NCBI GenBank assembly: GCA_963777605.1
Contig: CAVZRV010000031.1
Location: forward strand, 128,001-192,000
Reading direction: 5' to 3'
DNA from: an uncultured Acidobacteriota bacterium
GTDB taxonomy: Bacteria > Acidobacteriota > UBA6911 > RPQK01 > JAPXNP01
DNA length: 64,000 nucleotides
Position 1 is the first letter of the stretch. Each line of letters starts with the position of its first letter. This document shows, piece after piece, positions 14,675 to 53,281 of the stretch. Under the pieces are notes generated by a model. That model saw only the letters and a list, made by a program, of their open reading frames with translations. It was not told where the DNA came from and did not search any database. Position numbers and translations under genes: made by a program.

Positions 14675-16371
14675 TTATTTCGGATTGGACAAAGCGATCG
14701 AATCCTCGATGCCCTGGCCTTCAACAACGCGATAGATGTGTCCTCGCTTCACATGCTCGAGCGTCTGGTTCACGCCACTCGGCCATTTGAGAAGAATCCT
14801 GTCCGCTGTGTCACATTGCCCGAGACCCACGTGCAGGCGCAGATCATTGGCGGCGAGATAGCTTGCGGCAGATTTAACCTCCAATACCTGCTCGTGCCCA
14901 GAACATTGCACCTCAACGCGCGTCCCGATCCCATCGCGGTTGCTCTTCGTTCCCTCCAGTTTCAGAAGGAAGGAGCCCTGCCGCTGCCCGACATCGTTCC
15001 GAAGAATGGATGGCGCGCTGTCGCTGTTGTTTATGACCACATCGACGTCCCCATCATTATCCAAATCACCGAACGCAGCCCCTCGGCCAACCGTACGCTG
15101 ACTCAACGCCCCCCAGGTTCGTCGGTGACAAGATCGAAGCCGTCCCCGTCATTGTGGAACAACAAGGTCGGACCGTCGTGAGTACGGTCCGGTCGGTAAC
15201 GTTCGATGTCGTCGAGGATGTGCCCGGTGACGCCGAGAATATCTAACCTCCCATCATTGTCATAATCAAAGAATTTAAGGCCGAATATCACATACTGAAA
15301 GGAAGGTTCCAGCACACCAACCAAGCCGGCCTGATCTTCAAAGAACTTGGCCTCGTAGCTTTCAAACACCGCAATGCCCTCATCGGAGAAATTTGAGACG
15401 ATGAGGTCGAGCCAACCATCCTGGTTGAAGTCTCCGAAGTCGGTCCCCATCCCGGCCCGGCGCGTACCATCCATGCTGTAACTGACACCATAAATGGAAC
15501 CCATCTCCTGGAACGTCCCATCTCCCTTGTTCTCAAACAGAAAGTCCTTGTGGCGATCATTCGCGACGAAGATATCGATCCATCCGTCGCGGTTGAAATC
15601 ACCAATCGTGACGCCGAGGCCCTTTGCCTTCGCAGAACTCACGCCGGCGTCACTCGACACATCCGTGAAGGTACCGTCGCGATTATTACGATAAAGAAGA
15701 TCAGGTATCGGAGGAAAGAGATCAGGGAGACAATAGCTTCGCCACCCGGCGCTCTCGTTGCCGCAGAAGGGACCCTTCGCGACTTCCCACTCGAGATAGC
15801 GGCATACGTACAGATCCAAGAAACCGTCGTTATCGTAGTCGAGAAAGGCCGCACTTGTGCTCCACTTCCCTCCCTTAACGCCTGCCTCTCCTGTAACATC
15901 ACGGAATCTTCCGTTACCCAAATTCTGAAAGAGCTGATTCGGACCGAACTTCGTCACATAAATATCCACGTCGCCGTCGTTGTCGTAGTCGCCGACAGCA
16001 GCGCCGAAACAATACCCGGCCGATTCGAGTCCAGCTTCTTCAGTGACATCCACAAACCTGAAGTTCCCGTCATTTCTATAGAGGCGGTTGGCGTATTCAG
16101 GGCCTGCCTTGCGGAGTGAAGGAATCTCGGCTCCATTCAGAAAATAGAGATCCAAATCTCCGTCACCATCGTAATCGAACAGGGCACAACCGGACGCAAA
16201 CGGCTCGATGAGCTCTTTTGTGCCCGCAGCCCCGGTATGGTGCCTGAATTGATAACCGTGCAAGGCTCCGGTCATGTCGGAGAAGATCGTTCTGTCGGCG
16301 GGAAAAACCTCCGGGAAATACAGGGCACTGAGGAACAGTAGAAGTGCAGAGAGTCTCCAGCGATAAGACAT
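14675..16371 (-). CDS. CRTAC1 family protein (FG-GAP repeats plus ASPIC/UnbV), frameshift near 15105
   Basis: Signal peptide, repeated DYDxDGDxD motifs, SNRDGIG..RLHVGLG UnbV domain. Confidence 0.9.
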
Positions 16372-16469
16372 TCCTCAATCCCTTCGATCACTGTGCTTCA
16401 AGGTTGTGCCAGCTCTGTACGAGATTGCTCTGCTCCTCGGTGAAGGTCACGTTCACTCTCAGAACTCTT

Positions 16470-17510
16470 CTACGGTAAACCAAAGGTCAATCGAGTCATC
16501 GCTGGGCAATCACTGAGCTTGTGAGTTGCCTCGTAGCGATCTAATTTACCAAGGAAGTCCGCCCACATTCGATCTTCATCCACATCCGTGATCCAAGAGA
16601 CCGTCTGACCGGTCTCGGACATCTGGAAAGACAGGTCATCCATCAGTTGTGGCCGAGGATGAGTGACCGAAGAGGCCATTCCCATAAGGTAGGCGAGGGT
16701 AATATTGTCCCAGATGATCCACGGGCGTGAAAAATCATCCTGGCGCAAGGGTTTGATGAAACGATAATACCACCCTTGAAACTCGGTCCACAGCCATTTG
16801 CCAATCGGGCCGCGATCCTTGAGCATGGCTCCCGCCTCTTTGAGGCTGAGAGCCAGATTCTGGCGGCAAACATCACCGGCCCCGACCACGAGGGGTACGG
16901 GAGAGGCCAAGATCAATTGCATTGCCGCAGGGTCGTTCTGAATATTAAATTCCTGTCCCTGCGGAGGCTTGTCCCAGCTGCTGAAACCCATGTCTACAAT
17001 CCGGATGCGATGGACAATAGCGGGATCCTTCAGGATGGCCGACGCGATATCGGTCGCTGCCCCTATGGCCACCACCTGCAAGCGATTGGAAGCATCGAAG
17101 GGCTTGGACGCTTCGATCAAAAACTCCATCCCCGCGCTCTGCCTGGGAGTCTTTCGATCCTCGAGAGGAGAATCCGCACCGGCGAAGAGCGGAGGGTGTT
17201 CGGTCATGTTGAGTCGTTGCTCCACGATGTGACGCAGAATTCCATAGCTGGTCTGCCCGGCTGGTGAAGCTATGCTGGGGGCATGGGCGGAGATAATGCC
17301 CTTTACGTCGAACTCAGGGCTTAGCAGCAAATAGACAATCGCCCACTGATCGTCCACTTCATTGCCGACATCAGTCGAAAGGACGACCGGGATTCTTTCA
17401 GCACCCAGAACCTGTCCGGTGCTAATCCAGGCAAATAAGGCAAGAGCGAAGAACAGTGAGATAAGCTTGGTCGGCCGTGTTGAGGAATTGGGAGAAATGT
17501 TGGACATCAT
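16470..17510 (-). CDS. Exported nucleoside hydrolase (IU-NH family)
   Basis: STDVGNEVDDQWA, IGAATDIA, EFNIQNDP, WIIWD; N-terminal signal peptide. Confidence 0.85.
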   Translation of the reverse strand: MMSNISPNSSTRPTKLISLFFALALFAWISTGQVLGAERIPVVLSTDVGNEVDDQWAIVYLLLSPEFDVKGIISAHAPSIASPAGQTSYGILRHIVEQRLNMTEHPPLFAGADSPLEDRKTPRQSAGMEFLIEASKPFDASNRLQVVAIGAATDIASAILKDPAIVHRIRIVDMGFSSWDKPPQGQEFNIQNDPAAMQLILASPVPLVVGAGDVCRQNLALSLKEAGAMLKDRGPIGKWLWTEFQGWYYRFIKPLRQDDFSRPWIIWDNITLAYLMGMASSVTHPRPQLMDDLSFQMSETGQTVSWITDVDEDRMWADFLGKLDRYEATHKLSDCPAMTRLTFGLP

Positions 17511-17745
17511 AATAACTCGCATTCTACCATCAGACGGGGCATTGACTTTCACGAAAAAGGTTCCCTGGGACAGAGTTTCCAGGATCGTATGATCGCACAC
17601 GAAAAGGAGTACATGGCCAAGGCTCTGCGACGTAATGAAGGCGCTGCCATGGAAATGACTCTCTCGTTCAATCTTGCACTCATGTCTTTCGGATAACCAT
17701 GTATCTCCGGCCACCTAGGCGCGTCGAGAAGAAAGAGAGAACTCG

Positions 17746-18663
17746 CTATTTCGTATAGAAATCGGCCAACTGTGCTCGTGTTGGCAGTGATGGCTGCGCG
17801 CCCAGGCGGGTCACCGAGAAGGCCGCGACCCGATTGGCAAACCTGATGGCCTCACTTATGACCAAACCCTCAGCAAGCCCGCAAGCCAAAGCTCCGTTGA
17901 ACGCGTCTCCGGCTGCAGTGGTATCGACCGCCTTGATGCGGACCGATGGAATCTGTTCGCAGTCATCTTTCGTCACCAGAAAGCACCCTTCAGAACCCTT
18001 TGTGATGATGACTTGCCCGACGCCTCTACCGATCAGATAAGCGCCGGCATCTCTCGCCGTCCTGAGATCCGTGGGCTTGACACCAGTGAGGTTTTCAATC
18101 TCCGTTTCATTCGGTGTTATTACCGAAATGTCTCTGAGAAGCTCATCATCAAGATCTCGAGCGGGTGCGGGGTTGAGGATGACTCTAACCCCGGCCTCGC
18201 GGGCGAGTCTCGCAGCATGTTTTACGGTTTCCAGGGGGATCTCCAATTGCGTCAACAACACGGAGGCGGTGCTGATCGCGTGCTTCGCCCGGTCAACATC
18301 TGCAGGACTTAGGTGACTGTTTGCACCGGAAGCCACGGCAATGACATTCTCACCTTGGCGATCAACCAGAATCAAAGCAACTCCAGAAGGATGAGATTGG
18401 TCCTGAACTATGAAATCTGTACAGAGACCCTCGTCTCTGAAACCCTGAAGCCCCCGATCACCAAAAATGTCCGAACCGACCCGGGCCAGGAAAATTACTT
18501 CGGCTCCCAATCGTGAAGCAGCCACGGCTTGGTTGGCACCTTTCCCTCCCGCCACCATGACAAACTCCTCCCCTAAGAGGGTTTCCCCTGCGACAGGAAG
18601 TCTGGGAAGCTTGACCACCATGTCGGTATTGGAACTCCCGGCAACCACGATTTTCGGTCTCAT
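17746..18663 (-). CDS. rbsK: Ribokinase
   Basis: GSSNTD, GGKGANQA, NPAPA, PNETE, DTTAAGDAF PfkB motifs. Confidence 0.95.
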   Translation of the reverse strand: MRPKIVVAGSSNTDMVVKLPRLPVAGETLLGEEFVMVAGGKGANQAVAASRLGAEVIFLARVGSDIFGDRGLQGFRDEGLCTDFIVQDQSHPSGVALILVDRQGENVIAVASGANSHLSPADVDRAKHAISTASVLLTQLEIPLETVKHAARLAREAGVRVILNPAPARDLDDELLRDISVITPNETEIENLTGVKPTDLRTARDAGAYLIGRGVGQVIITKGSEGCFLVTKDDCEQIPSVRIKAVDTTAAGDAFNGALACGLAEGLVISEAIRFANRVAAFSVTRLGAQPSLPTRAQLADFYTK

Positions 18664-18737
18664 GTTTCCTCCATTAAGAACACTGGATTACCATCCTCAG
18701 AGCCGCAAATGAGTTGCTCTCAATCGTGCTCGCAACA

Positions 18738-19694
18738 TCACTTCGGCCCAGAGGCGGCGCCTCGGAACACAAGTTTCCAGTGATCGGATAAGGTCGGCTC
18801 CGTATCCGTTCCTTGCCGATCTAAATACTCCAGATGGCCGCGTGCGTCCTGAGTTCTTCCCATTCGGATCAGTGTTTTCCCCAACTGGTACTGCGTGGGC
18901 CCATCCTCAGGATTGAGTTCGACAGCCCTCTCAGCCGTCCTCAGAGCATCATCCGTTTGTCCCAGCGCAAGGAAAGCTTGGCTCAAATACCTACAGACCT
19001 CTGCTGAGCCATTCTCCACCGCTTCTGCAGCTTGAAACTCGGCCAATGCTTCCGTCCAATCTCGATGCAATGCATAAATCTTTCCCAGTTGGAAATGACA
19101 GTAGAAGTCCTCAGGCGAACGCTTCAAACCTTCCTGGTAGGCAACCTTGGCCTCGTCGAAATGGCCGTATGCGTGATGTGTCAAGCCCATGTAATACCAT
19201 GACTGAACGTCGTCTGGGCTCAACTCCAGCGCCTTTGCGAAACATGCAATTGCACCGGCGCCATCGCGCTCATCCAACTTTATCAGTCCCAACATTCGAT
19301 AGACCTCGGGCGTCTCCTCGTAATGTAAAACATTGGTCAGAACCTGAATTGCCTGAGCACGCTCACCTCTGCCGAGACAGAAACGGGCCAGATTGACAGC
19401 AAAAAGAGAATTCCCGGGCGACAACTCCAAAGACCTTGTGAGGTTCTTGAGCGCCTCTTGATCGTCGCCCTGCACGGCAAAGGTCAACCCGAGAAGGTGG
19501 TGGGCGGCAGCGTCTCGAGGTTCCTGTTGCAGGTACACTTGAAGCCGCCGCACGACCTCCTCGTAGTGTCCGTTTCGAAACTCGGACAGGGCATCGTGGA
19601 TGACATCGGCATCCTGGCGTGCAAGCAACCCATCGAAGGCAATACCGACTATCACAATGAAGATGGAGACTATGCAACGGTGTACTGACAACAC
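18738..19694 (-). CDS. Exported TPR repeat protein
   Basis: Multiple TPR motifs (AHHLLG, ALELSP, QYQLG); signal peptide. Confidence 0.85.
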   Translation of the reverse strand: MLSVHRCIVSIFIVIVGIAFDGLLARQDADVIHDALSEFRNGHYEEVVRRLQVYLQQEPRDAAAHHLLGLTFAVQGDDQEALKNLTRSLELSPGNSLFAVNLARFCLGRGERAQAIQVLTNVLHYEETPEVYRMLGLIKLDERDGAGAIACFAKALELSPDDVQSWYYMGLTHHAYGHFDEAKVAYQEGLKRSPEDFYCHFQLGKIYALHRDWTEALAEFQAAEAVENGSAEVCRYLSQAFLALGQTDDALRTAERAVELNPEDGPTQYQLGKTLIRMGRTQDARGHLEYLDRQGTDTEPTLSDHWKLVFRGAASGPK

Positions 19695-19708
19695 AATCCT
19701 GCCTAATG

Positions 19709-20863
19709 CTATGGTTCCGCAACGGACCGGTTCTTATCGGCGATGATATCCTGCTCTTCCTGCTGGTGCTTGGCTTTGAGCTTCTGAAACAACTGAAACT
19801 CGGAACGCGCGCGCTCGGTGCTACCAATCTGGCTGTAGATTTGAGACAGCATATCGTGCGGTTGCTCCCTTTCCGGGTCCAGGGTGGCTGCCCGATCCAG
19901 GCTCTCAATGGCGGAGTCAAGGTCCCCTCGTGCCCGAAAGACCGAAGCTAAATCAATATGAGCATCAACCAGATCCGGGCGGATCTCAAGAGCTCGCCTC
20001 AAATGGCGTTCCGCATCGTCAAACTTGCGCAACCCTAAATAGACTGCTCCGAGAAGATAGTTCGACATGGGATCATTGGGACTAAGCTCCAGCTCCGCCT
20101 GAAGGTGCTTTAGAGCGTCATCGAGCCGTTGGTTCTCCCAGTAGACTTCGGCAAGAGAATAGTGGAGTCCCGGTACTCCCGGATTATCGGCGATCGCCTT
20201 TAAATACTCTGCAATCGCCGGTTCGATGTGGCCCTGGCTTCGCAGGAGCTCCGCCTGAAGTTGCCGCAATCGGTAGGAGCGGGGAGAAATTCGCTTGAGT
20301 TCCTCGAAGGTTTGAATTGCGAGAAGCATCGAAGCTTGACCCTTGTAGTACAAGGCATCGACACTGCCGGGCTCCTTCTTGAGCCACTCAGCAAGAAAGG
20401 GAATGGCCTTCTCGAATTCACCCGTCTTCACCAGAGCCACGGCGAAGTGCTGAAGGAAGACAGGATCTCGATCCTCAAGGTCGGGCAGTCCTTGAAGAAC
20501 CTCAACACACTTCTTAAACTGGCTCAGGTTGAAGAGCGTTAAGCCAACGAGTCCGCGGGCCGAGGTGAGTGAAGGATTGAGTTCAACCGCTTTGGAGAGG
20601 TGGTCAAGAGCCTGCTGATACTTCTGTTGCATATAAAGAGCCAGGCCAAGATTCGCGTGCACCTCAGCCACGTAAGGTCTCGCCGCAACAATCTTTTCAA
20701 GCGCAGCCTGGGCTTCTGCAAAGTCTTCGGACTGAAGCGCCCGCTGAGCCTCTTCCGATAGGAGTTGAAGTTCCGGATCGCTCTGAGCGCTGGCTGTTCC
20801 GACCCAAGGACTCGTCAGCAAGAGGATACAAATATATGACCCTATGGCCGTCCATCGAATCAT
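19709..20863 (-). CDS. Exported TPR repeat protein
   Basis: VHANLGLALY, AVELNP, LHYSLA motifs; signal peptide. Confidence 0.85.
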   Translation of the reverse strand: MIRWTAIGSYICILLLTSPWVGTASAQSDPELQLLSEEAQRALQSEDFAEAQAALEKIVAARPYVAEVHANLGLALYMQQKYQQALDHLSKAVELNPSLTSARGLVGLTLFNLSQFKKCVEVLQGLPDLEDRDPVFLQHFAVALVKTGEFEKAIPFLAEWLKKEPGSVDALYYKGQASMLLAIQTFEELKRISPRSYRLRQLQAELLRSQGHIEPAIAEYLKAIADNPGVPGLHYSLAEVYWENQRLDDALKHLQAELELSPNDPMSNYLLGAVYLGLRKFDDAERHLRRALEIRPDLVDAHIDLASVFRARGDLDSAIESLDRAATLDPEREQPHDMLSQIYSQIGSTERARSEFQLFQKLKAKHQQEEQDIIADKNRSVAEP

Positions 20864-22623
20864 TGCGAGTCCCTCACCGCAGGTACACTGACTGCCGGCT
20901 TCTTACAGCTCGGATCGGGTCTTCCCTCTGTGATCTCCACGAACTGATTGGCTTCGAGATTCCGAAACGTCTGCACCGCGCCTGAGAGCCACTTCACCTG
21001 GAGTTCATCGATCTTGTTATTTGTACCCAAACCGAAGTTGATTCGAGGGTCGTTGCTGGACAGGAATCCACCGGCCTGATAAGCCGGCTGGGTTTGGGTC
21101 AGTTCACCTGACCGCAGCTGAAGCAGCGCACCAAAGCCGTCACGATTCCCCTTGGTTCCTCTCAGCCGCACTGAGAGCCAGTTGCGTCCCGGTTGAGCTT
21201 TGCAGATTAGGAGACTCGGGAAATCGTCGAGGTTGTTAACCACGATATCGATATCCCCGTCATTGTCGAAGTCTCCGAACGCCGCCCCGCGACCCACCCT
21301 CTTGACGAGGAGATCACCGCCAATCTGCTCCGTCACGTCTCGAAACGTATGGCCCTGATCGTTGTGTAAAATCTGAGGATGCTGCTTATAGCCGGAATCC
21401 ATTTGCCAACTTTCGATCCCGGGATAAACATGACCATTTACAATGAAAGCATCCTTCCATCCGTCCTGATCGACATCTAGGAACTTCAAGGCGAAACCAA
21501 CCATCTGCCAACTCACTGACATCAGGCCCATATCGACTGTAACGTCTTTGAAGAAACCTCCCCCGACATTTTGGTAGAGGGTATTGCAGTCGTCTGAGAA
21601 GTTGGCCACGAACAAATCCAGGAGACCGTCGTGATTGAAATCATCAACGTCTGCTCCCATACCGGATTGCTCCCGACCATCTCCACTGTACCCACATCCT
21701 CTTATAGCTCCCTCCTCGTCGAAGGTGCCATCTCCAAGATTGTGGTAGAAAAGGTTCGGAGTGGCATCGTTGGCCACAAATACGTCTAGCCAACCATCAT
21801 CATCGAAGTCGGCCCAAATCGGAGTGAATCCGTAGTACCGGCGTTGTTCAGTGCCAAACGCTTGCGTCGTTACGTCGGTAAAGGTGCCGTCCCCGTCATT
21901 GCGGTAAAGCCTGTCCGGCAGTGCATCCAGGCCACGGGGGCCGCATTGGACAGCTATACCACGGTACTGACAATAGCGGGTGCTACCCCGTGGAGGGACC
22001 TTGTCCTTCTTGAAATCGATATAGCGAGCCACATACAAATCAAGGTCGCCATCCTTGTCATAGTCCCCCCATGCCGAGCCTGTACTCCACCCGGGAACGT
22101 CGATGCCAGTTTGTTTTGTAACATCGGTGAAGGTTCCGTCGCCATTGTTTCTATAGAGGACGTCAGGTCCAAAGTTGGCCAGATACAGGTCGGCATCCCC
22201 ATCGTTGTCATAGTCTGTGGATGACGCACCCATTCCCCATCCAGGATTACCCGTGCCGCTTCTCGCGGTAACATCTTCGAAAGTGCCGTCGTGCTTGTTT
22301 CGATAGAGCGCGTTTCTTGGCACCTGCACATTGTCAGCGATCTGCGCACCTTGAAGTTCAAACGTTGTACCGTTGACGAAGTAGATGTCCAGCCAGCCGT
22401 CACCGTCGAAATCAAGAACGGCAACACCGCCTCCTTTCGATTCCACAATGTAGTCCTTTTCAGGACCCCCACTCATATGCCTGAAGGTGATTCCTGCCTC
22501 GACTCTACGATCTGTGAAGGCGAATTGCGGGACAAGGTCATTCCCGGTTACTGCGGCAACGAAGAGTATCAACGTGATGGAAAGAAGAGTAAATGGACCG
22601 AGTTGCAGAGTGTCTTTCTTCAT
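20860..22623 (-). CDS. CRTAC1 family protein (FG-GAP plus ASPIC/UnbV)
   Basis: DFDGDGWLD repeats, GRGAAFGDFDNDGD, NRDGFGA, RINFGLG. Confidence 0.92.
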   Translation of the reverse strand: MKKDTLQLGPFTLLSITLILFVAAVTGNDLVPQFAFTDRRVEAGITFRHMSGGPEKDYIVESKGGGVAVLDFDGDGWLDIYFVNGTTFELQGAQIADNVQVPRNALYRNKHDGTFEDVTARSGTGNPGWGMGASSTDYDNDGDADLYLANFGPDVLYRNNGDGTFTDVTKQTGIDVPGWSTGSAWGDYDKDGDLDLYVARYIDFKKDKVPPRGSTRYCQYRGIAVQCGPRGLDALPDRLYRNDGDGTFTDVTTQAFGTEQRRYYGFTPIWADFDDDGWLDVFVANDATPNLFYHNLGDGTFDEEGAIRGCGYSGDGREQSGMGADVDDFNHDGLLDLFVANFSDDCNTLYQNVGGGFFKDVTVDMGLMSVSWQMVGFALKFLDVDQDGWKDAFIVNGHVYPGIESWQMDSGYKQHPQILHNDQGHTFRDVTEQIGGDLLVKRVGRGAAFGDFDNDGDIDIVVNNLDDFPSLLICKAQPGRNWLSVRLRGTKGNRDGFGALLQLRSGELTQTQPAYQAGGFLSSNDPRINFGLGTNNKIDELQVKWLSGAVQTFRNLEANQFVEITEGRPDPSCKKPAVSVPAVRDSQ

Positions 22624-24446
22624 GGCTGGTCCTTGGGAAAGTCCTGAGCCTTCAGCTGTTTCATCCTTTCCCGGATTCTATCCTGAACCTGCTTAAACTG
22701 CTCGAGCATTGCACGGGCTTCTGCTGTGCGTCCCTTCTGCATAACCTGGCTCAGCAAGTAGTAAGAACTCTCGAAGTCCGGATTGGCTTCGATCGCATGT
22801 TCAAGCAGGCCTTGAGCTTCATCCAGCTTAGAGTCTCCGAAATAGATGCGGGCAAGCTCGAAAAGAGCGGGCGCGTGAGTTCCATCCAGGGCAAGAGAAC
22901 GCTGCAATTCAATTGTGGCCTGATCTTTCCTTCCGAGTTGGCCGAGAACAAGTCCCAACTGGAAGTGGTACAAGGGGTTATCCGGATCCAGTCTCATTGC
23001 CTCTTCGTAGTAGGGCAGTGCTCTCTCCCGATCTCCTGAACTGGAGAACGAATGCGCCATCAGAAAGTGGGCCTGTGCCAACGACGGCTCCAGGCTCAGG
23101 ACGCGAGCAAGGGTATCGCGCGTTTCCTCAAATTTGCCGAGATTGTAATAGCTCATGCTCAAAGTGAAAAGGTAGCGGGCCATCCCTGAGAATCTCGAGA
23201 GATGGCTCTCCAGGAGTTGGATCACCTCAGGATCTTCGCCGGGGACTGCAGAAAGTTCGAAAGTACAATGAAGGGCTGTTCATTGGCCTCCGGTCGTTGC
23301 GTCGCCGCTCTCGCCGTCTCCTCGGCCTTCTCCCAGGAATGGAGCGCCAGATAGCTTTGCATCAGGCCTTCCAGTTCCCCGAAGGACAGAAAATTGAGGG
23401 GTTGCGGCTCCAGTAGCGAAATCACGTCCGCGTAACGCTGCTCACTTACGCACAACTGGGCCAGCCTCGCCCTAGGGAAGGATCGTCGGGCCAGGATACT
23501 AGACCGGCCCTGAGCGCTCTGATAGCCGCCTCAGGTGGTCCGCCGGCAGCCCGGCAGGACTCGACGAGATCCAAGAAGAGCTTTCTGTCCGAAAGTTGTG
23601 GGCCGTATCCTCAAGAATCTTGAGCGCCTCCCTTGGCCGGCCCGTCTTCGTAAGCGAGGCTGCCATAAGCTGCGCGTCAATTTGATCCTCGATCGCGTGT
23701 CCTTCCAGAAGCGGAGGCACTTGTTCAAAGGCGCCGAGCCGGAACAAGCTGACAGCAAGCAAATGCTTGAGCTCTTCATTGCCAGGTTCCTGCGCAAGGC
23801 CTGTTTTCAGAACGCGCGCTGCTTCCTGGTAAAATCGTGATCCAAAAGCACCTTTCCGAGATCAACCCTGAGCGAAGGTGATATCTCAGGCATCCGTTCC
23901 AGGGCAGACACCAATTGCTTGGCTTCTGGCGCCCGACCTAGACTCAAAAGACCGTGGAGAAGGGGAATCGCGATCCCAACATCGTGAGGTTGTAAAGCGT
24001 GCGTTTTCTGCAAGCTCTGTACGGCTGCGCTCATATCTCCTTGGTGCATCTCAAGGATGCCGAGGTTGTAGAGCGCGCTGGGGATAGTCGGCTGGATCTG
24101 AATGACTCGCCGGTAACTCTCGATAGCCTGGGGTTCCATTCCAAGCTGAAAAGGCGGCCGCCAGCATCATCCAAGCCAAGACGGACTCAGGCTCAAGACG
24201 GACCGCCTCTTCCAGCAGAGGACGTGCGCCCCGAGGCTGGCCCTTCTCGAGCGAAGTCCGTGCCTGTCGCAGCAACTGCTGAAAGGAACCGTCGACTTGG
24301 AGAGCGAATGCGGTTGGAATGAGCACGCACAGCAAAGCAAAGCCGGAAAGCAGCGACTTGAATAAGCGAGAAGTTAAACGCAAGTCGATCGCAGAAAACG
24401 GCCGCGGGAGTAAACAGTGGAAGATCAAGTGCACAGACCTCCCCAC
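22620..24446 (-). CDS. TPR repeat protein, multiply frameshifted
   Basis: TPR motifs distributed over ORFs 24051..24446, 23807..24139, 23499..23762, 23222..23455, 22620..23225. Confidence 0.7.
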
Positions 24447-24622
24447 GTCGGCACAGGACTGCGGACATGGACTACGGTAACGAACGCATTAAAGTATACC
24501 CCGGACCTAGGCACCAGCGTCATGATCAAGCACCCTTCTGATTCTTGAACCGTACCTAACACCAATTACGCCCTGTCAAATATAATAGAGCTCCACACCA
24601 TCTCTAGCGGTCGTGAACACGA

Positions 24623-25672: not shown

Positions 25673-25797
25673 GGTGCCTCCGAACGAAAAGTGGGACCGA
25701 GAGTCCGTGTTGGCCGAGTCTTGATCCACACAAGATAGTACCGCTTTTCATGGTTCGTGGGAACCTGCTCAACGCCAATTACATCCTCTTCCTGGTA

Positions 25798-25822: not shown

Positions 25823-26009
25823 GAATCATCATCCGGGGCACTTCCTCTGGCCTTGTGCGGCACGAAAGGTGGTCTGTTCGTACAGGTCGGCCAAAACCTT
25901 CAGTCGTTTTCTCGACCGCAAGACTTGCCGATCCTTACACCCGCTGAAATCGCGATGTTACACAGATGCGTCATTCCTTGGGTCGCCAGCCTTGCGGCGG
26001 TTGCCAGGG

Positions 26010-27264: not shown

Positions 27265-27368
27265 AGACTCAAAAGAGGAGCCAAGGCAGCAAAATCGTCT
27301 TAGTTCTAGCCATTCTGATCTATCCGCCGCGTCTGCACAACGGTAGAGTCTTGGCAGGGAGGCGAACC

Positions 27369-27998: not shown

Positions 27999-28031
27999 TG
28001 GTCCCGGGCGGCTGTCGGCGCGGAGGAGAAA

Positions 28032-32217: not shown

Positions 32218-32220
32218 GCG

Positions 32221-33237: not shown

Positions 33238-33245
33238 AGCACGCT

Positions 33246-40221: not shown

Positions 40222-40378
40222 GCGCGCTCCCTCGTCTCACTGCCATCGACCGAGCGGTGCAAGCCATCCGTCCGCTGTCGCTCGACCCCTACCGTGTTCT
40301 TTTGCCGTCTCCCGCCCGCATGTCTCTTGCGGGCGGGAGTCTGAGGAGGTGTACGCAGCCCTGTGTGTCCTCGAGAGT

Positions 40379-43300: not shown

Positions 43301-43490
43301 ACTTAATGCCGTGCGGGCCGCATTCGTCTCCACATTCCGCAACGTCAGTTCGACGCCCGGAATAAAACTCCCCTGTTGGTAGAACCGCCCCCAAGATGTC
43401 TCCGGTGGTCGACTGAGCAGTGGCGAACCGGGGCAGCAAACAAAGAACGGTGAGAGCAACAAGCAAAAACAGAAACTGCGGCCTTCTCAT
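40379..43490 (-). CDS. Oar-type TonB-dependent outer-membrane receptor, heavily frameshifted
   Basis: N-terminal carboxypeptidase-regulatory domain, LPLNGRN, KSGTNEFHGSLFEFLRN, QNQFGG, C-terminal FRAEFFNAFNH..PRYIQFGLKLNF. Confidence 0.85.
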
Positions 43491-43749: not shown

Positions 43750-44864
43750 ATGGAGACTGGAAAGGATCGGATTCTCAAAGCCTTCACTCATGTTAACCAT
43801 CGGTGGCCCCGACCAACATCGAGGGAATCTACAACCTCGAGGCGTTCTTGAAGCGATTCCAGGTTCGAAGTAAGGAGTCTGTCCGACTCCGCCTGGATGT
43901 GGACGTTTTCAGCGCTCGCCCGGTCTATTTTGGTCCAAACGCACGCATGCGTTTGGATGCCTTTGGTGCGCCTGTTGATGAAGTATATGGAACTGATGGA
44001 GTCGGCTACGGAGTGGGTAGAGACTACCCACTCCGTGAAGCTACGAGTCCCGCGGACGTGGAGAGATTTCCCTGGCCTAGTCCTGATCACTTCGACTACG
44101 AGGTTGCTTCCCGCTTACTGGCCCGCCTACCTGCCGACAAGGCCAAGCGGATTGACGGGAAGTACGGAGTCGCTAGACGGGGCAGGATCACGAGGCGGCC
44201 GCGGGAGGGGGGCCCTGGTTGCCCCTGATTTGCAATCTTTTCAATCTCTTTGGCATGGAAGATACGCTGATTAACATGGCTGTCCAGCCCAAGCTCATTG
44301 AAACGGCAATCCGCAGGACTCGAGGAGTTTACGGTTGAGTTCTTTGGAAGGCTCTGCGAGGCCACCCGAGGGCAGGCGGAAATCGCTTACTATGGGGACG
44401 ATTTCGCGACCCAGAGGGGACTGATGATATCCCCGGAGCACTGGCGGCGATTCCTGAAGCCTACTTACCGGAAGGTCTTCGAACTGCTGAAGAGCTACGG
44501 ACTGAAAGTGTGGTTCCACAGCTGTGGGCAATTCCGCCCCGTGATGAGCGACCTGATTGACATCGGCATGGACGTGTGGGAGACCGTGCAGACTCACCTC
44601 CCCGGAAATGAACCCGAGATCCTGAAACGAGAATACGGGGAGCATATCACTTTCTATGGAGGTATCAGCACGCAACGAACCTTGCCGTTTGGCACGGTTG
44701 ACGACGTGCGCAGGGAAGTCCGTGAACGCATTCGAGTGCTGGGCCGGGGCGGCGGCTACATAGTGGGGCCGGATCACGGGATCATGCCGGACGTGCCGGT
44801 CGAAAACGTGCTGGCGATGTTCGACGAAGCGAGGAAGTTCAGTTTTGACTCTCCTGCAGAGTAG
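43750..44864 (+). CDS. Uroporphyrinogen decarboxylase family protein (URO-D/MtaA/CmuA superfamily), frameshifted
   Basis: GDDFATQRGLMISPEHWRRF, WFHSCG, FYGGIST, GGGYIVGPDH, PVENVLAM. Confidence 0.85.
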
Positions 44865-44965
44865 GTATGGGGCATCTTCCTGGCGCGGACATTGTCCAGT
44901 CTGCGAATTCCAGGGTCGCCGCTCACCACTAACCGTTATTCTTAATCAATTGGGGAGGGCGTGAA

Positions 44966-45985
44966 ATGATCAAAGAGTCTTCGTATCGTGGAACCACTCG
45001 CTGGGCCCTGTTCAGCCTACTGAGCTTGTCTCTCGCCGGTTCTGTTCCTGTTTCGGCGCAGGGGAAGATTCCCGTCATCCTCTCGACCGACGTGGGTAAC
45101 GAGATCGACGATCAGTGGGCGATTCTCTACACACTGTTCAGCGATGAGTTCGAGGTTCTTGGAGTCATCTCCGCCCACGCGCCATCTATTGCCCCCCCTG
45201 CGGGTCACACAGCCTATCGGATCCTCCGCGATATTGTCGAAGAGCGACTGGCTATGGATGTTCATCCCCCACTATTGGAAGGGGCGAGTTTCCCACTCGA
45301 GAGCAAGACCGCCCCTCAGCCCAGCGAAGGCGCAAGCTTCATCGTTCAGGCATCTCAGGGGTTCTCTGAGAACACTCGCCTTCGAGTATTGACAATTGGA
45401 GCGGGAACCGACGTCGCCTCGGCTCTCCTGATGGATCCGTCGCTTTCGGGCCGTATCCAAGTCTTGCTGATGGGCTTCGACGAGTGGCCCAAAGGAGGGG
45501 ACGGATTCAACATATTGAATGATGTCAAGGCAGCCCAGGTCATTTTTGAGTCGAATGTACCCATCGTTGTGGGTTGTGCGACAGTCTGCACCGAGAATCT
45601 CGGGCTGAAGTGGAACCAAGCGAAGGAGATGGTGAGTGAGCGCGGTCCCGTCGGGCGGTGGCTCTGGGACGAGTACCAAGCCTTCTATTATAGATACGTC
45701 AAACCCATGAGGATGGACGACTTTTCGAAGCCGTGGATCATTTGGGACACCATCGTTGTGGCTCATCTTCTGGGCTTTACGCAACACGCAACCTATGACC
45801 GGCCTGTGCTGAATGACGACGTCAGCTTCAGCCCCGGAGATCGGAAGAAGCAAATCACCTGGATCACCGATGTCGACGAGGAAGGTATGTGGGCGGACTT
45901 CCTCGAGAAACTGGACCGCCACCAGAGGACCTATTCGGTCGGCCCTTATCGTTTTCGGACTCGATTGACTTTTCTAATGCCTTAG
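44966..45985 (+). CDS. Exported nucleoside hydrolase
   Basis: STDVGNEIDDQWA, FNILND, WIIWD; signal peptide; paralog of 16470-17510. Confidence 0.88.
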   Translation: MIKESSYRGTTRWALFSLLSLSLAGSVPVSAQGKIPVILSTDVGNEIDDQWAILYTLFSDEFEVLGVISAHAPSIAPPAGHTAYRILRDIVEERLAMDVHPPLLEGASFPLESKTAPQPSEGASFIVQASQGFSENTRLRVLTIGAGTDVASALLMDPSLSGRIQVLLMGFDEWPKGGDGFNILNDVKAAQVIFESNVPIVVGCATVCTENLGLKWNQAKEMVSERGPVGRWLWDEYQAFYYRYVKPMRMDDFSKPWIIWDTIVVAHLLGFTQHATYDRPVLNDDVSFSPGDRKKQITWITDVDEEGMWADFLEKLDRHQRTYSVGPYRFRTRLTFLMP

Positions 45986-46086
45986 GACGGGTCACCCGAC
46001 ATCAGTTGGACTCTCTCTTGTCAGGTTTGAATCCTCAAAACCCAATCTGTCTTCGATCTTAAGGGGTCGCAGAACTGGAGGAAGAA

Positions 46087-47087
46087 ATGATGCGAATGGG
46101 CGCCTTCCCACTTATCCTTGTCTCGGCAATGCTGGGAATGCTGAGCGGTCCACCGTCGGCTTCAGGCCAGCCAGCGGACCCTGAAACGAAGATTCCTGTC
46201 TTCCTCTCGACTGATGTTGGGAATGAGATGGACGACCAGTGGGCCGTTGTCTACACGCTTCTGAGCCCAGAATTCGATGTGCTCGGGGTCGCCTCAGCTT
46301 ATGCCCCTCGATCCCGGCGCCTGCTGGCTTTGTGGGATATCAGCTTTTGCTGGATATCGTGGAAAACCGCCTGGATCTGAAAACGCACCCCCCTCTCGTA
46401 GAGGGCGCCAGCCAACCTCTGCCCGACTCGACAACTCCCAGGAGAAGCCAGGCTGCTCTTTCGATCATCGAGTCATCGCGGCCATTCTCACCGCGAAACC
46501 GGTTGAATGTCATGGCCATCGGTGCGCTGACGGACGTCGCTTCCGCAATCCTGCTCGATCCGTCCATTGTGGAGCGAATTCGGGTGATCGATATGGGGTT
46601 TAACAACTGGCCGGCAGGAGGGGACCTTTACAACATCATAAACGACATTCCCTCGGCTCAAGTCGTGTTCCATTCTAACGTGCCGGTCGTTGTCGGTTGC
46701 GCCGATGTCTGTCGTGAGAGTCTTTCAGTTGACTTTGCGGAGGCCAAGACACTGATCAGCAGCAGGGGGCCGATTGGGGACTGGCTCTGGGAAGAGTTTA
46801 CCGCTCACTATTTTCGCTTCGTCAAGCCGCTCCGGGTCGACGACTTCTCCAACAAGAAGGTGATCTGGGACGTCATCGTGATCGCCTATCTGCTGAATAT
46901 GACAGATCACGTAACCCATCCTCGCCCCGCGGTCGAGGACGATGCTTCGTTTGGGCCGCTCAGACCGGACAGTGAGGTGACCTGGATTACCGATCTCGAC
47001 GAGAATCGGATGTGGGCCGACTTCCTCGCGAAGTTGGATCGTTTTCAAAAAACTCACAGAATTGGGTCCGCGGATCAAAGGGATTAG
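46087..47087 (+). CDS. Exported nucleoside hydrolase, frameshift near 46305
   Basis: STDVGNEMDDQWA, YNIIND, VIWD; signal peptide. Confidence 0.85.
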
Positions 47088-47905: not shown

Positions 47906-47952
47906 CGGGCCAGACCAAGACACTTCAAGGGGATTCGAAGGAACCTCGCCGG

Positions 47953-49075
47953 TCACCTCCGGCCTGCCATCTCGGGGTACAGTTCCAGGATGCCTTCCTC
48001 AGATGCTCGGCAGATCCCGCGCTCCGTGATCAGCCCCGTCACCAGACGGGCCGGGGTCACGTCGAAGGCATAGTTGGCTGCGGGACTGGAGGCCGGGGTC
48101 ACCAGCACAGATTCGACCTTGTCTCGGACAAGCCCGTCCACCCATTTCACTTCCGACTCACTCCGCTCTTCGATCGGGATTTCTTTCACTCCATCGCGCA
48201 AGACCCAGTCGAAAGACGAGGAGGGCAGGGCGACGTAGAAGGGGATGTTGTTGTCTGCGAGCGGCCAGCGCCTTCAGGTAGGTGCCTATCTTGTTGGCTA
48301 CGTCGCCCGTATACAGGGTTCGATCCGTTCCCGTAATGACCATGTCCACCCGTCCATGCTGCATCAGGTGGCCGCCGGCATTGTCGACGATCACGGTGTG
48401 AGGGACGCCGTGTTGGCCCAGTTCCCAGGCCGTCAGGCCCGCTCCCTGATTCCGGGGTCGCGTCTCGTCGACCCAAACGTGAACCCGGATTCCGGCGTCA
48501 TGCGCCTCGTAGATCGGGGCAGTGGCGGTTCCATAGTCAACAAAGGCGAGCCATCCCGCGTTGCAGTGAGTGAGGATGTTGACGCGCTCGCCCCCCTTCT
48601 TCGAGCGGATCTCCTCAATGATCCTGAGGCCGTGTTCTCCGATTCGCCGGCAGTACTCCGAATCCTCGTCTGCAATCCTGTCGGCTGTTTGCCGCAGAGC
48701 GTGGATCATCCCATCGATGCCCAGAACCCTGTTCAGCACTCCGACCTGCCGGTTCACGGCCCACTCCAGATTCACGGCGGTCGGCCGGCTCTCCTTGAGT
48801 CTGCGGGCACTGGAGTCCATCGCCTCCAGAAACGCATCGTCCGAACACCGTGGTGAAGTCAGCCCGCCCAGGTACATTCCGTAACCTGCGGCTGCTCCGA
48901 TCAGCCCCGCCCCCCGAACATGCATCTCAGAGATTGCGACGACGACCTCATCTACGGTTCTCAGGTCTTCAATTACAAACCGATGCGGCAGGTGACGCTG
49001 ATCGATGATTTGAACAACGCTCGGGTCGTCCTTCTTCCGCCAAATTGTTCGAAAGTGCTGCCCCTCGACCTTCAA
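47953..49075 (-). CDS. mtnA: S-methyl-5-thioribose-1-phosphate isomerase, frameshift near 48260
   Basis: MHVRGAGLIG, RPTAVNL, THCNAGWLA, DETRPRNQG, GDVANKIGT, NYAFDVTP. Confidence 0.93.
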
Positions 49076-49149
49076 TCGTCCGTCCCCTTCCTTGGCGCTC
49101 CCTGTCGCATTAATTTCGTCTAGTGTCGCCTTGCTGAAGTAGATTACTT

Positions 49150-49530: not shown

Positions 49531-49539
49531 GCCCGTCCC

Positions 49540-49845
49540 TTTATGTGGACATGATCCGGTCTCAGGTATCCCTCTTCGAGCTCGCTTTCCTCGTGCCGCG
49601 CCAACTGACGAAACGCCGGAGTCCAGTTCCCCACGCAACGTTCCCGCAGATCACTTTCCGCCTGCACTTTGGAATGAACGCCCGTGATACTTACACTCCC
49701 ACTTCGTGCGCTGTAGACTGCTGTAGTTCGTCATTGAAGTCCCTTTCGTGATGCTTTGGTCGGCTCACGAAGAGACTTCTCAAATCAGATTTCCGAAAAT
49801 GTCAAACTTCGGCTGCCTCCCCGGCAGAACCGGAGGGACTCCCGA
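49540..49845 (-). mobile_element. tnpA: IS200/IS605 left end with TnpA N-terminal remnant
   Basis: MTNYSSLQRTKWECKYH..FIPKCRRK..PDHVHI (HUH); left-end hairpin CTCCCCGGCAGAACCGGAGGG. Confidence 0.8.
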
Positions 49846-49851
49846 TTTGGC

Positions 49852-50742
49852 CTAGATCGACTTCAACGCAGTCGCGTTCCAGATCTTCCCCTCACCTTCA
49901 ATGGCGCGCTCTATGTCCCGAAGGGCCAAGGCGACGTAGAGTGCGTCCACAATTGTGCTTTGGGCGATCCTCGAGGCGATCGTTTCCGAGCGGGTTTCAC
50001 TGGAGACACTCAACAATGTGACGTCCGCGTACTCCGTAATCGGGGACTGCGCATTCCCGGTGATGCATATTGTTTGACCCCCATTCCTTTTTGCTTCAGC
50101 CATCGTAAGGACCGGGTCACTGGAACTACCGGATTGGGAAATACCAACCACCACATCTCCCGGCCGGATGAGAGCGGCTTGCATAAGCTGCAGGTACGAA
50201 TCGGTCTCGGCGCGGCAATTAAGCCCCAGACGAAACAAGAAATTGTACATCGACTGCACGATCAGCCCCGGAGTGCCCACTCCGACCAGCAGGATCAGAC
50301 TCGACTTTGCTCCTTCAAGCATGTCGACTGCTTTCTCAAATCCCTCCAGGTCAAGAACCTCCATCGTGTCCTTAAGGGCCTGGATATTCGCCAGAAAGAC
50401 CTTGCGGGCAACGGTAGGCGGGGTGTCGTCCGCGGCCAGATCATCGTGAATGACCTGTGTCGGAGATGCCATGTCCCGCTCAACGGCAGGCTTCGAATCG
50501 GTATACCCGTGAAAACCCACCGCTCGGCAAAATCGTAGCACGGTCGTGTCGCTGACACCGCATTCGCGGGCAACCTGCGCCATGGACAAGCGGACAATCT
50601 GCTGGCTGTTCTGAAGAACCCAGGAGGCAACGTCCGACTCCGCCCGAGCTAGACCGGGAAGGTGACTGCGAATTTGGGACAGAGCTTTCAAGCTCGAGAC
50701 CGAAGGGGCCACTCCACCCGCCAATGTTGTTTCCTCTTCCAT
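49852..50742 (-). CDS. RpiR/MurR family transcriptional regulator (HTH plus SIS)
   Basis: VARECGVSDTTVLRFCRAVGFHGY, ISQSGSS, ITGNAQSPI, SRIAQ. Confidence 0.92.
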   Translation of the reverse strand: MEEETTLAGGVAPSVSSLKALSQIRSHLPGLARAESDVASWVLQNSQQIVRLSMAQVARECGVSDTTVLRFCRAVGFHGYTDSKPAVERDMASPTQVIHDDLAADDTPPTVARKVFLANIQALKDTMEVLDLEGFEKAVDMLEGAKSSLILLVGVGTPGLIVQSMYNFLFRLGLNCRAETDSYLQLMQAALIRPGDVVVGISQSGSSSDPVLTMAEAKRNGGQTICITGNAQSPITEYADVTLLSVSSETRSETIASRIAQSTIVDALYVALALRDIERAIEGEGKIWNATALKSI

Positions 50743-51011
50743 GGTTCTCACTCCGTCTTCAGGACCCGGACAATGGGACTGTCTTCCAAGGCAATCCTCA
50801 ACCCACATTCCGGCCTCTGCCACACCCCAGACCTTTTCCCCGTCCAACTTTCGGGGAACCGCCCCCCCCAAAAAAATCTCAATGGCAAGCGTCAAGGTAG
50901 CAGTATACTGCCCAGATAATCAGGTGCATGTCGTGGTACCACTTTCACCCGTTCAAACTCCGAGGGCACAGCAGCCGCTCGCTCAAGCTGGGCAGCAGCG
51001 ATCCGCCGTTG

Positions 51012-52047
51012 TCAATCGAACAGTTCCGGCAAGGACTGCGAATAGGGCGGCGTCACAATGCCTCTCTCCGTGACAATTGCGGTAACCAGTTCGTGAGGAG
51101 TGACGTCGAACGCAGGACTTTGGCTCGTGTGCCTTCCGGCGCCGTCTGGATTCCGCCGCATCGCGTCACTCCTCGGTCTTCCGCTCTTCGATCGGGATCT
51201 GTTTTCCGAAGGGGTATCCATGTCGATGGTCGGTGTCGGAGCCGCCACGTAGAAAGGGACCTTAAAGTAGTGGGCGAGGATCGCCAGGCTCAGCTTACCT
51301 ACTTTGTTCGCCACGTCCCCGTTTGCCGCTACGCGATCCGTGTCCGTGATCACCGCGTCGACTTTCCCCTGAGAAAGCACCACTCCCGCCGCACTGTCGC
51401 AGATCAGTGTGACGTCAATCCCCGCCGACTGTAGCTCCAGAGTCGTAAGTCGGGCGCCCTGCAAATAGGGACGGGTCTCATCGGCGTAGACTCTCATGTT
51501 CCACCCTCTCTCCTTCGCCAGAAACATGGGAGCGGTTGCAGTTCCGTAGGCTGTCGCAAGGCTGCCCGCGTTGCAGTGAGTCAGCAGACTCACCCCGTCG
51601 CCGATCATGGTCAGGAGGTTCTGACCGAATTCCTTGCAGATCTCCGCATCCTCCTGAAAGATCCGGTTCGCCTCCGCCTCCAAGACTCTCCTCTTTTCGC
51701 AAACCGAGAGGGATTCGAGCCGGTTCACCTTCGTAAGCATTCGATCAAGGACCCAGGAGAGATTGGCTCCGGTGGGACAAGCTCAGGCGAGAAACTCGGC
51801 ATGCCCTCTCAAGGTTCGCATGAATTTGGCATGACCGATCTCTCCCAGATCCCGGACGCCGAGGCAAAGGCCATACGCGGCTGCAATCCCGATCAGCGGC
51901 GCCCCGCGCAGTTCCATGTCCCGAATCGCCCGGAACACCTCTGCTACGGAGTTCCTGGGATTGTACTGACGTGTCCGGAAAGTCGAGTTCGTTCAAGACA
52001 TAGAGTGTCCATCCCTCCACTCGATTTGTTTCAGCCCTCCTGACACA
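51012..52047 (-). CDS. mtnA: Second methylthioribose-1-phosphate isomerase (MtnA/DrdI-like), frameshifted
   Basis: [47 protein letters not shown]. Confidence 0.88.
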
Positions 52048-52049
52048 TG

Positions 52050-53281
52050 CTCTCCATTTCTGAGTTCTCTCTCGAACTGGAGCACCCGGGACGGATTGAT
52101 CAGGCAATCCTCCGCCCCGCAAATGCCGTCACATCCTCGATATCCGAGAATGAGTGCCGATTCATGACCAGATCTTCACCCAATTCGAGGATCAGCGTTT
52201 GGACCCTCTACGCCTTTCAAGGTCTGCGATCCATCGACATCGACATTGTGCGCGAGACCGCATGGCGGGATCATGACGATACCTGCATAGCCGATGGTGT
52301 CCACAAACAGGTTCCCATGAGGGTCTCGCGAAAGCCAACCGCCGTGGTCATGCTGTCGCGAGCGTCCTTCTCCCAATTCACTTTGAACTTCTGGTCGATT
52401 CCGGTAAGTCTCGTTGATCGTTCCCAACAAGTACTTCGATAGTCCCGATCTCTTCGGCCGGATTGTCCTTGCCGTTCCAGGAGACATAGTTGATGAGGAG
52501 ATTACCGATCAGAAGCCCGGGATCGAACGCAATTGGCCCGAAGAAGGCAAACTCGGAATCGAAGGCCTTCGTCCGGGTCTCGTCTGCGAAGATCACCCAG
52601 AGTGCAGGTCACCGTCCCAGGAATCTCTGCAGCCGTGAGAGCTTGCATTAGAATTTCGAGGCCTCCAACCGCAAACAACTCTTCTTCCAAAACACTCTTT
52701 GAGTAGCGTCTCAAGCAGTACTCACGTTGTTGCGCGGGCAATCGTAGTAGGATCGGTAAAGATCAGGTCCTCTGTGATACAATACAGCACTGGGTTAGTC
52801 AACTCCTTTACCAGTCGCTTCTTTTCTTTTGGATCTCTATGCAGGTCGGAAGTTAGAGAGCACATTGGCCATGAACGTCGAGATTTGATCCGCAAAACGT
52901 GGATATTTCTTCATTCGGATCGTGCGGCCACGCAGCACTCCTAGGCCAGACAGATCTTCCATAACAATGAGAGCCATCTCTTCGTCGATTCGATGACCTT
53001 TGGAACAAGACCCGGAGCCAATTCGTCCTGGATTTGAAGTGCCTTCCCTTCGCGAACCGCGCGACTTAGGTCCAGGGGCCACTCCTCTCCAACACATCGG
53101 ACATAGGGCAACGCCTGTTTGACGACTAGAGATTCTCCGCTCCCCGCCCTCCGGACACGGAAGACCAAGTGATGTTTCCGTCGCCGATTTCTTCAGCGGA
53201 CCACGGAGCTCCCCCTGACGCAACGTCCAGGCGCTGCACGTAGTCAGCACAACTCTTTTCGTCGAGGGTTTGATAGCTCAT
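52050..53281 (-). CDS. mtnK: S-methyl-5-thioribose kinase (MtnK/DrdK-like), heavily frameshifted
   Basis: EEIGDGN, VVKQALPYVRCVGEEWPL, VMEDLS, ITEDLIFTDPY, DSEFAFFGPIAFDPG, GLAHNVD. Confidence 0.88.

Follow-up and report, generated by a model that had tools for sequence, protein, structure and literature searches.

A mosaic accessory block of an uncultured Acidobacteriota bacterium contains a recurrent methylthioribose kinase, isomerase, transketolase and RuBisCO-like protein cassette

Two salvage shunts for by-products of S-adenosylmethionine are among the closest described relatives of the genes reported here. In Rhodospirillum rubrum and Rhodopseudomonas palustris, the methylthioadenosine (MTA)-isoprenoid shunt consists of MtnP, MtnA, a RuBisCO-like protein (RLP) of the DeepYkr type and a cupin methylsulfurylase (PMC5893883); the dihydroxyacetone phosphate (DHAP) shunt for 5'-deoxynucleosides is described with MtnK or MtnP, MtnA and Ald2 (PMC10986504, PMC12632272). 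Here we analyse a 64-kb stretch of DNA (positions 128,001 to 192,000 of contig CAVZRV010000031.1, assembly GCA_963777605.1; "the window" in the following) from an uncultured Acidobacteriota bacterium, in which a methylthioribose kinase (MtnK), two MtnA-family isomerases, a split transketolase and an RLP lie close to nucleoside hydrolases, ribose genes and a corrinoid methyltransferase module. An initial annotation of the window had joined all of these to one undescribed pathway. We find that only the kinase-isomerase-transketolase-RLP genes occur together again in other bacteria, as a recurrent cassette that is apparently uncharacterised in the literature searched. The region that harbours it is probably a 41-kb accessory block, an accreted mosaic of at least three independent modules; the reading we favour is that of a scavenging island with, as its core, an uncharacterised variant of methylthioribose/5-deoxyribose salvage.

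Gene identities were taken from a listing of open reading frames (ORFs) and from searches against Pfam, NCBIfam and solved structures; for several genes, the ORFs of a second copy of the block (contig C16 of the same genome, see below) were used as the better text. The genes of the core are in two groups. On the plus strand, the N-terminal subunit of the split transketolase (TK_N, 31220-32188, in two pieces here and intact in C16; best solved relative the split-chain transketolase 6yak at 2e-32) is followed by the C-terminal subunit (TK_C, 32195-33234, in pieces here; Transket_pyr and Transketolase_C domains, with an NCBIfam match) and by an RLP of about 375 amino acids (33270-34392, in several pieces). 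On the minus strand are MtnK (52130-53413, heavily frameshifted, with approximate coordinates mapped from C16), the methylthioribose-1-phosphate isomerase MtnA_b (51015-52202), an RpiR-family regulator (49855-50919, HTH_6 and SIS domains in Pfam) and MtnA_a, a divergent MtnA-family isomerase (48161-49147, IF-2B domain). MtnK exceeds the equivalog cut-off for methylthioribose kinase (TIGR01767, 311.7 bits for the C16 piece versus 275) and so does MtnA_b for its family (TIGR00512, 421 bits in C16 versus 279); MtnA_a, 37% identical to MtnA_b, is partial and scores 306 bits for the same family in the window. The best solved relative of the RLP is the 378-amino acid chain 3qfw (2.3e-51; 178 bits, versus 147 bits for an MtnW-type protein), which we take to be the DeepYkr RLP (RLP1) of R. 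palustris; both proteins share a K-D-D-H stretch in the alignment. In a search with some three quarters of its length, the RLP stays far under the equivalog cut-offs for MtnW (190 versus 409 bits for NF007095 and 152 versus 514 bits for TIGR03332).

That MtnK, MtnA, the RLP and the transketolase belong together, as the initial annotation had proposed, is borne out by other genomes. The tests for hydrolases beside MtnK or RLP and for URO-D beside hydrolases, given below, cover 80, 80, 8, 2 and 7 loci as well as four plasmid regions. TK_N, TK_C and RLP are adjacent in this order not only in the window (31220-34392, plus strand), but also in all five genomes with a close RLP in a 400-genome sample of the phylum and in four of four plasmid regions examined. 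The latter come from Brucella anthropi (pOANT04), Shinella, Mariluticola and Rhizobium rosettiformans (NC_009672.1, NZ_OZ000535.1, NZ_CP090961.1 and NZ_CP032406.1; L181-L184), and all four have an annotated mtnK-mtnA-tktN-tktC-rlp operon, which is part of a cassette of nine genes that also contains a sugar ABC transporter and a fusion of an aldolase with a short-chain dehydrogenase. The annotations of the plasmid transketolase subunit vary between transketolase and DXP-synthase N-terminal domain protein. On 20 of the 22 plasmid records that carry an RLP with 41% identity or more, TK_N is found about 2 kb away from it. Among 80 metagenome loci, of which 43 are shorter than 5 kb and many too short for neighbours to be visible, 13 have transketolase and RLP side by side, all with RLPs of at least 47% identity. 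Three metagenome contigs have MtnK and MtnA together with transketolase and RLP, in two different gene orders (L115; L119 and L120), and on a fourth, MtnA is next to the RLP. Near RLPs that lack the transketolase, we found neither a cupin nor a conserved partner, but only unrelated genes: ribonuclease, HAD, sulfatase, aldehyde dehydrogenase, uracil-DNA-glycosylase and CN-hydrolase genes. No paper describing the combination of transketolase and RLP with MtnK/MtnA was found in a search that did not include the key RLP papers and supplements, so that an earlier mention is possible.

The split transketolase is, judged by its motifs, a subfamily of its own. The motifs NGGYLSQACS, SPxHYAL and VEMIGAEHSPG are invariant in all 11 aligned orthologues, including the C16 copy, and where solved transketolases have an active-site histidine in their G-H motif, there is a tyrosine here; around the histidine that follows, the alignment is gapped. 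In solved transketolases, these histidines have roles in binding the donor. The corresponding stretch of the window is 31330-31360.

From these identities, the core can be read as a route for 5-substituted riboses, for example 5-methylthioribose or 5-deoxyribose. According to their family scores, MtnK would phosphorylate the free sugar at C1 and MtnA would isomerise the product to the respective ribulose-1-phosphate; the two MtnA paralogues may serve different 5-substituents. By analogy to the DeepYkr precedent (PMC5893883), the RLP could then shift the carbonyl group to yield a 1-substituted xylulose-5-phosphate, and the split transketolase, with its conserved position next to the RLP and its altered active site, might cleave this to glyceraldehyde-3-phosphate and a C2 fragment, taking the place of the Ald2 aldolase or the cupin methylsulfurylase of the known routes. 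The block and C16 have no class II aldolase (PF00596; the only matches in the genome are on C8, C27 and C7) and no Cupin_2 domain (the nearest is at C31:208711, outside the window on the same contig). The genome encodes a housekeeping MtnA (C11:123979-124962) and an MtnP (C27:575238-575957) outside of the block, but no MtnN/Pfs above cut-off; the MtnK of the block therefore adds an entry point for free, presumably exogenous sugar. In its most extended form, this reading would make the Tyr-for-His transketolase and the RLP a third exit from methylthioribulose-1-phosphate/5-deoxyribulose-1-phosphate, to glyceraldehyde-3-phosphate and a C2 thio or deoxy fragment, coupled to secreted hydrolases and TonB-type uptake, with exogenous 5'-methylthio or 5'-deoxy nucleosides as sources of carbon or sulfur. 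We regard this as a tentative proposal, with less than even chances of being correct.

The genes that could deliver such sugars would make up a separate module for nucleoside and ribose scavenging, consisting of secreted hydrolases of the inosine-uridine (IU) type, a TonB-type receptor, a GRP-like transporter, a ribokinase and a phosphopentomutase. Of the five nucleoside hydrolases (NH) originally listed, four are clear: NH1 (16473-17714, minus strand; 84.7 bits to PF01156, weakly related to RihA/YbeK), NH2 (24626-25747, minus strand, three frameshifted pieces), NH3 (44933-45982, plus strand) and NH4 (46084-47084, plus strand, one frameshift) all exceed the PF01156 cut-off of Pfam, and all four N-termini resemble signal peptides when judged by eye, in agreement with the at least four signal peptides claimed. 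The fifth, NH5 (about 37885-38747, minus strand, in pieces), is a divergent relative with a weak match below cut-off (E-values of 2e-4 to 7.5e-4 in C16 and 4e-4 in the window) that has kept an EFNV..D..AAKVF stretch. NH1, NH3 and NH4 are paralogues (52-55% identical; 52% between NH3 and NH1) with an altered aspartate cluster: in DxDxxxDD, another residue takes the place of the first aspartate and there is an insertion of two residues, with the later aspartates conserved. The ribokinase RbsK (17749-18687, minus strand; PfkB domain with 239 bits, ribokinase 4x8f at 2.4e-75) and the phosphopentomutase DeoB (34619-35835, minus strand, two pieces, convergent to the RLP gene; Metalloenzyme domain, 3m8w at 1.1e-72) would handle plain ribose and pentose-1-phosphates. 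The outer-membrane receptor (40382-43486, minus strand) is in pieces in the window and an 814-amino acid ORF in C16, with OMP_b-brl_4 and CarboxypepD_reg domains. The predicted sugar transporter (39091-40288, minus strand, in pieces) is indeed a very hydrophobic membrane protein, but its match to the GRP/RhaT/GlcU family is weak (23.7 bits to TIGR00776).

A flow from the secreted hydrolases to MtnK, as proposed initially, is weakly supported: the kinase depends on free 5-substituted ribose, no MtnN/Pfs above cut-off is encoded in the genome, and the sugar would thus have to come from outside, where the hydrolases could supply it. Gene neighbourhoods speak against such a flow. Hydrolases were found together with the MtnK/RLP set in none of the four plasmid regions and at neither of the two NH3-type loci elsewhere (which have none of the other genes of the block either), and just one of the 80 metagenome RLP loci has a hydrolase, an NH2-like gene two genes away from the RLP with a uracil-DNA-glycosylase gene in between (L112). 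On plasmids, the NH3 type has two distant matches. The argument is further weakened by two canonical IU-type hydrolase genes that are present elsewhere in the genome, outside of the block.

Directly upstream of NH3 and NH4, with no terminator-like site in between, is a gene of the URO-D/MtaA family (43797-44861, plus strand, an intact ORF of 375 amino acids in C16). The family assignment holds and the H-x-C motif is kept, but the resemblance to MtaA is weak (4ay7 at 2.1e-10; 51-60 bits to the NCBIfam models, below their cut-offs) and the closest relatives are only 27-41% identical. A URO-D gene next to a nucleoside hydrolase was not observed at any of the other loci examined (0/25, 0/2 and 0/7).

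The third module consists of a regulator, MtaC and MtaB. MtaC (27162-27995, plus strand) has both a B12-binding and a B12-binding_2 domain, and MtaB (27999-29405, plus strand) belongs to the methanol:corrinoid methyltransferase family (PF12176, 526 bits). Divergent from MtaC is a frameshifted regulator of the AraC/PocR type (25961-27378), identified by its 42-48% match to an acidobacterial metagenome-assembled genome (MAG) with the same order of AraC/PocR, MtaC and MtaB and an MtaB that is 78% identical (L001). This nearest MtaB locus and the type of the receptor point to Acidobacteriota as the phylum of the host. In L001, an intact minus-strand ORF of 438 amino acids that overlaps the stretch matched by the window has HTH_18 and PocR domains; the pieces in the window gave no Pfam match themselves and we infer their minus-strand assignment from L001. 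MtaB is present in the host genome solely in this block (window and C16), and the genome, which is estimated to be 96.7% complete, has no RACo.

For the survey of MtaB loci, one genome per species was used, resulting in 80 loci of 1.6-21.4 kb (35 with at least 20 kb) with relatives of 51-78% identity, and these were probed by tblastn with every protein of the window. MtaC is present at 46 of the 80 loci and URO-D at 25, and the neighbours that recur in a clustering are MtaC, URO-D, RACo, DUF1638, AraC/PocR and CobW. Nucleoside hydrolase, RbsK, transketolase, RLP, DeoB, MtnA, RpiR and the pieces of MtnK are found at none of the 80. Conversely, MtaB, MtaC and URO-D are absent from the vicinity of all 80 metagenome and all 8 genome RLP loci, and none is annotated in the four plasmid regions. 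MtaC-MtaB is thus a separate, self-regulated unit and, in our reading, a self-contained bystander that would be unrelated to the two scavenging modules. It most likely acts on methanol, as its MtaB shares 51-54% identity with MtaB proteins of Acetobacterium and of Eubacteriaceae MAGs. The MtaB clade is found in MAGs of Acidobacteriota, Sumerlaeota, Verrucomicrobiota, Kiritimatiellia, Planctomycetota, Armatimonadota and Bacillota, and several URO-D paralogues occur in its neighbourhoods. Our literature search found nothing on a role of MtaB in these mostly heterotrophic phyla.

All named genes lie between 14.7 and 53.4 kb of the window, in a block that is bracketed by direct repeats of 221 nucleotides (14282-14502 and 55480-55700, 93% identical and 41,198 bp apart); copies of this element are also present on contigs C35 and C30. 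The modules differ in GC content: 0.63 for AraC-MtaC-MtaB, 0.53-0.54 for its neighbours, 0.58 for transketolase-RLP and 0.57 for MtnK-MtnA. Over all modules, the range is 0.51-0.63, and the genome has 0.588 (standard deviation 0.023, windows of 3 kb). Key genes of the block are rare in the phylum: in a sample of 400 genomes, the NH3 type is found in two, an MtnK above cut-off in none and a close RLP in five; among 40 nearer relatives there is one weak match to the RLP. Given this rarity, the clustering of these genes is not due to chance in one sense. The 64-kb window has no tRNA gene.

Most genes of the block are broken by indels of 1 bp. The second copy allows reading around this noise: positions 14164-58719 of the window correspond to the whole of the 44.6-kb contig C16, with 96.8% identity, 992 mismatches and 439 gap positions. 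The window and C16 are not interrupted at the same points: C16 has a broken MtaB where the window has an intact one, and the opposite applies to the two subunits of the transketolase, URO-D, MtnA_b and the greater part of the receptor. As the breaks differ between the copies, most frameshifts are probably assembly errors, and we read the window and C16 as two strain copies, each poorly polished, rather than as pseudogenes. Of the 374 gap events between the copies, 325 are single bases. A simple model of homopolymer errors was rejected, as homopolymers, which make up 15% of the bases, contain 77 of the 374 events and thus no concentration of indels; random 1-bp errors are the best remaining reading. 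Most of the block differs from C16 by 4-108 mismatches per 2 kb. The exception is a TPR stretch at 22000-24000, where 2 kb contain 288 mismatches and 73 gap positions (about 14% divergence). This points to a TPR gene that is hypervariable or has recombined, or else to a misaligned repeat.

How firmly can the core be assigned to the salvage of 5-substituted riboses? Several observations speak against the salvage reading or limit it. In the window, the transketolase-RLP genes (31-34 kb) and the MtnK-MtnA genes (48-53 kb) are about 17 kb apart and on opposite strands, MtnK and MtnA are nearby in only 3 of the 11 transketolase-RLP loci with usable flanks, and none of the five phylum genomes with transketolase-RLP has an MtnK, although all five have an MtnA elsewhere. 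Neighbours of transketolase-RLP are heterogeneous, the description of the RLP as DeepYkr-like is drawn from its best solved relative, and the NH1/NH3/NH4 type is distant from characterised hydrolases (E-value of 4e-8). A crude scan of 12 intergenic stretches revealed no operator motif common to the module promoters; its uninformative yield was one 11-mer common to two regions and one palindrome upstream of DeoB/GWxTD. The rhizobial cassette has an aldolase/dehydrogenase fusion in addition to the transketolase, which may therefore not simply replace the aldolase. A rival explanation is that transketolase and RLP, and perhaps MtnK and MtnA too, act on an ordinary or another sugar, for example from ribose over ribose-1-phosphate and ribulose-1-phosphate to xylulose-5-phosphate, in a mere pentose and nucleoside catabolic island. 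In its favour, the block contains a sugar transporter and an RpiR regulator besides RbsK and DeoB, the neighbours of the cassette elsewhere include a SorC-type regulator and a sugar ABC transporter, the RLP falls far short of the MtnW cut-offs, and enzymes of the methionine salvage pathway can reportedly process ribose (Nakano 2013, as cited in PMC6302742). Yet, MtnK passes the equivalog threshold for methylthioribose kinase, xylulose-5-phosphate would not call for a transketolase of its own with a changed active-site motif, and some loci have sulfur or methionine genes on the flanks of transketolase-RLP: L104 has a sulfite reductase and L110 a PALP enzyme with an alpha/beta hydrolase, which hint at a link to sulfur or methionine metabolism. 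We consider the ordinary-sugar explanation rather unlikely, and the salvage of 5-substituted riboses the better fit.

A further rival explanation is that the block is decaying by true pseudogenisation, or that the assembly wrongly combined DNA from different organisms here, with no working pathway in either case. Long ORFs cover a fraction of just 0.52 of the block versus about 0.8 genome-wide, and some gene decay is possible; the block harbours insertion sequence (IS) or repeat elements and an integrase fragment, its genes are rare in the phylum and the contamination estimate of the genome is 5.68%. This is countered by the two copies, which break at different places and leave each gene intact in one or the other, and by the predominance of single-base gaps, which is unlike the divergence of coding sequences. 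Moreover, the block is continuous with chromosomal flanks within a contig of 528 kb, the right chromosomal flank is part of C16 too, with a DPP-IV gene that differs from the window by about 5%, and the gene order of the MtaB module is conserved in the acidobacterial MAG mentioned above. Decay or chimerism are improbable as an explanation for the whole block. The least probable reading is that of the initial annotation, a unified pathway in which periplasmic hydrolysis of methylated or methylthio nucleosides and import are followed by MtnK, MtnA, RLP and transketolase, with capture of the O- or S-methyl group by MtaB, MtaC and URO-D. Its appeal is that all parts lie inside 39 kb, that URO-D with its H-x-C motif directly precedes NH3-NH4, and that a genome devoid of RACo has its sole MtaB here. 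However, the two sets of genes are absent from each other's loci in the surveys above, MtaC-MtaB has a regulator of its own and a GC content 8-10 points above that of its neighbours, the similarity of MtaB to acetogen-lineage proteins points to methanol, and no other URO-D gene at the loci examined adjoins a hydrolase. These data do not support corrinoid capture of the methyl group, nor the single pathway, be it in its original form or as an addition to the third exit; we give both versions hardly any credence. In the co-occurrence check that had been suggested, the MtnK, MtnA, transketolase and RLP genes recur together and MtaB and the hydrolases stay apart from them, and separate origins, separate regulation and accretion around repeats describe the corrinoid module and the hydrolases largely well, the core not. 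Independent modules in one accessory block, with a salvage cassette as the core, remain our preferred reading.

The remaining genes of the block have no apparent relation to scavenging and are interspersed between the genes described above: on the minus strand an FG-GAP/UnbV_ASPIC protein in two pieces (14678-16374), TPR genes, an FG-GAP/ASPIC gene and two further TPR genes (18741-24488), and a protein with CarboxypepD_reg and TPR domains (29426-30841); on the plus strand a GWxTD-domain protein (36038-36937) and the C-terminal fragment of a phage integrase (47117-47554), all identified by Pfam; and, at the right end, a dGTPase/HD-domain protein (53615-55041, minus strand; Pfam and NCBIfam). 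The intergenic region between DeoB and the GWxTD gene has a perfect palindrome (8+8 nucleotides with a spacer of 5 nucleotides, 35988-36008), which may be an operator. Between RpiR and MtnA_a is a multi-copy repeat of about 200-280 bp (49581-49856), with copies of 83-88% identity on C27, C10, C25 and C51. To the left of the block, an IS6/IS240-type transposase (9050-9772) recurs almost unchanged on C17 and in more diverged form on several contigs, and the first 9 kb of the window are repeated on C35 with 91% identity.

Compared with the known systems, the corrinoid module resembles the MtaABC system of methanogens and acetogens in its MtaB (the PF12176 score and the identity to acetogen-lineage MAG proteins) and in the adjacent MtaC with both B12 domains. 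It differs in that the host genome lacks RACo and belongs to a lineage of the heterotroph type, and the sole MtaA-like gene is weak, 15 kb away and paired with hydrolases. The core differs from canonical methionine salvage with the MtnW enolase, as its RLP stays below the MtnW equivalog scores. With the MTA-isoprenoid shunt it shares an MtnA-family isomerase and an RLP whose best solved relative is the short RLP 3qfw, and with it the expected conversion of methylthioribulose-1-phosphate to methylthioxylulose-5-phosphate; unlike the shunt, the block would be entered by MtnK rather than MtnP, has no cupin and has a split transketolase in the RLP operon. The DHAP shunt has in common with the block the entry by MtnK and MtnA, the exogenous 5'-deoxy or methylthio sugars and the theme of scavenging, but the block has RLP and transketolase instead of a class II aldolase. 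The rhizobial cassette holds both, the aldolase/dehydrogenase fusion and transketolase-RLP.

A further close system is the annotated plasmid operon of the Hyphomicrobiales, mtnK-mtnA-tktN-tktC-rlp: it comprises the same five families, with 43-46% identity for the RLP, 53-56% for TK_N and identical transketolase motifs. In the block, the set is divided into transketolase-transketolase-RLP and MtnK-MtnA-RpiR-MtnA, and in place of the ABC transporter and the aldolase/dehydrogenase there are the TonB receptor, the GRP-like transporter and the secreted hydrolases nearby. The 39-kb gene combination is, in this comparison, an accreted mosaic rather than a single pathway, and its cassette apparently a novel version of the shunts known to salvage by-products of S-adenosylmethionine. 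If the proposed chemistry is correct, it would provide a function for a widespread, generically annotated cassette of rhizobial plasmids, Acidobacteriota and many metagenome contigs, and would be a third solution to the disposal of these by-products, next to the MTA-isoprenoid and the DHAP shunt.

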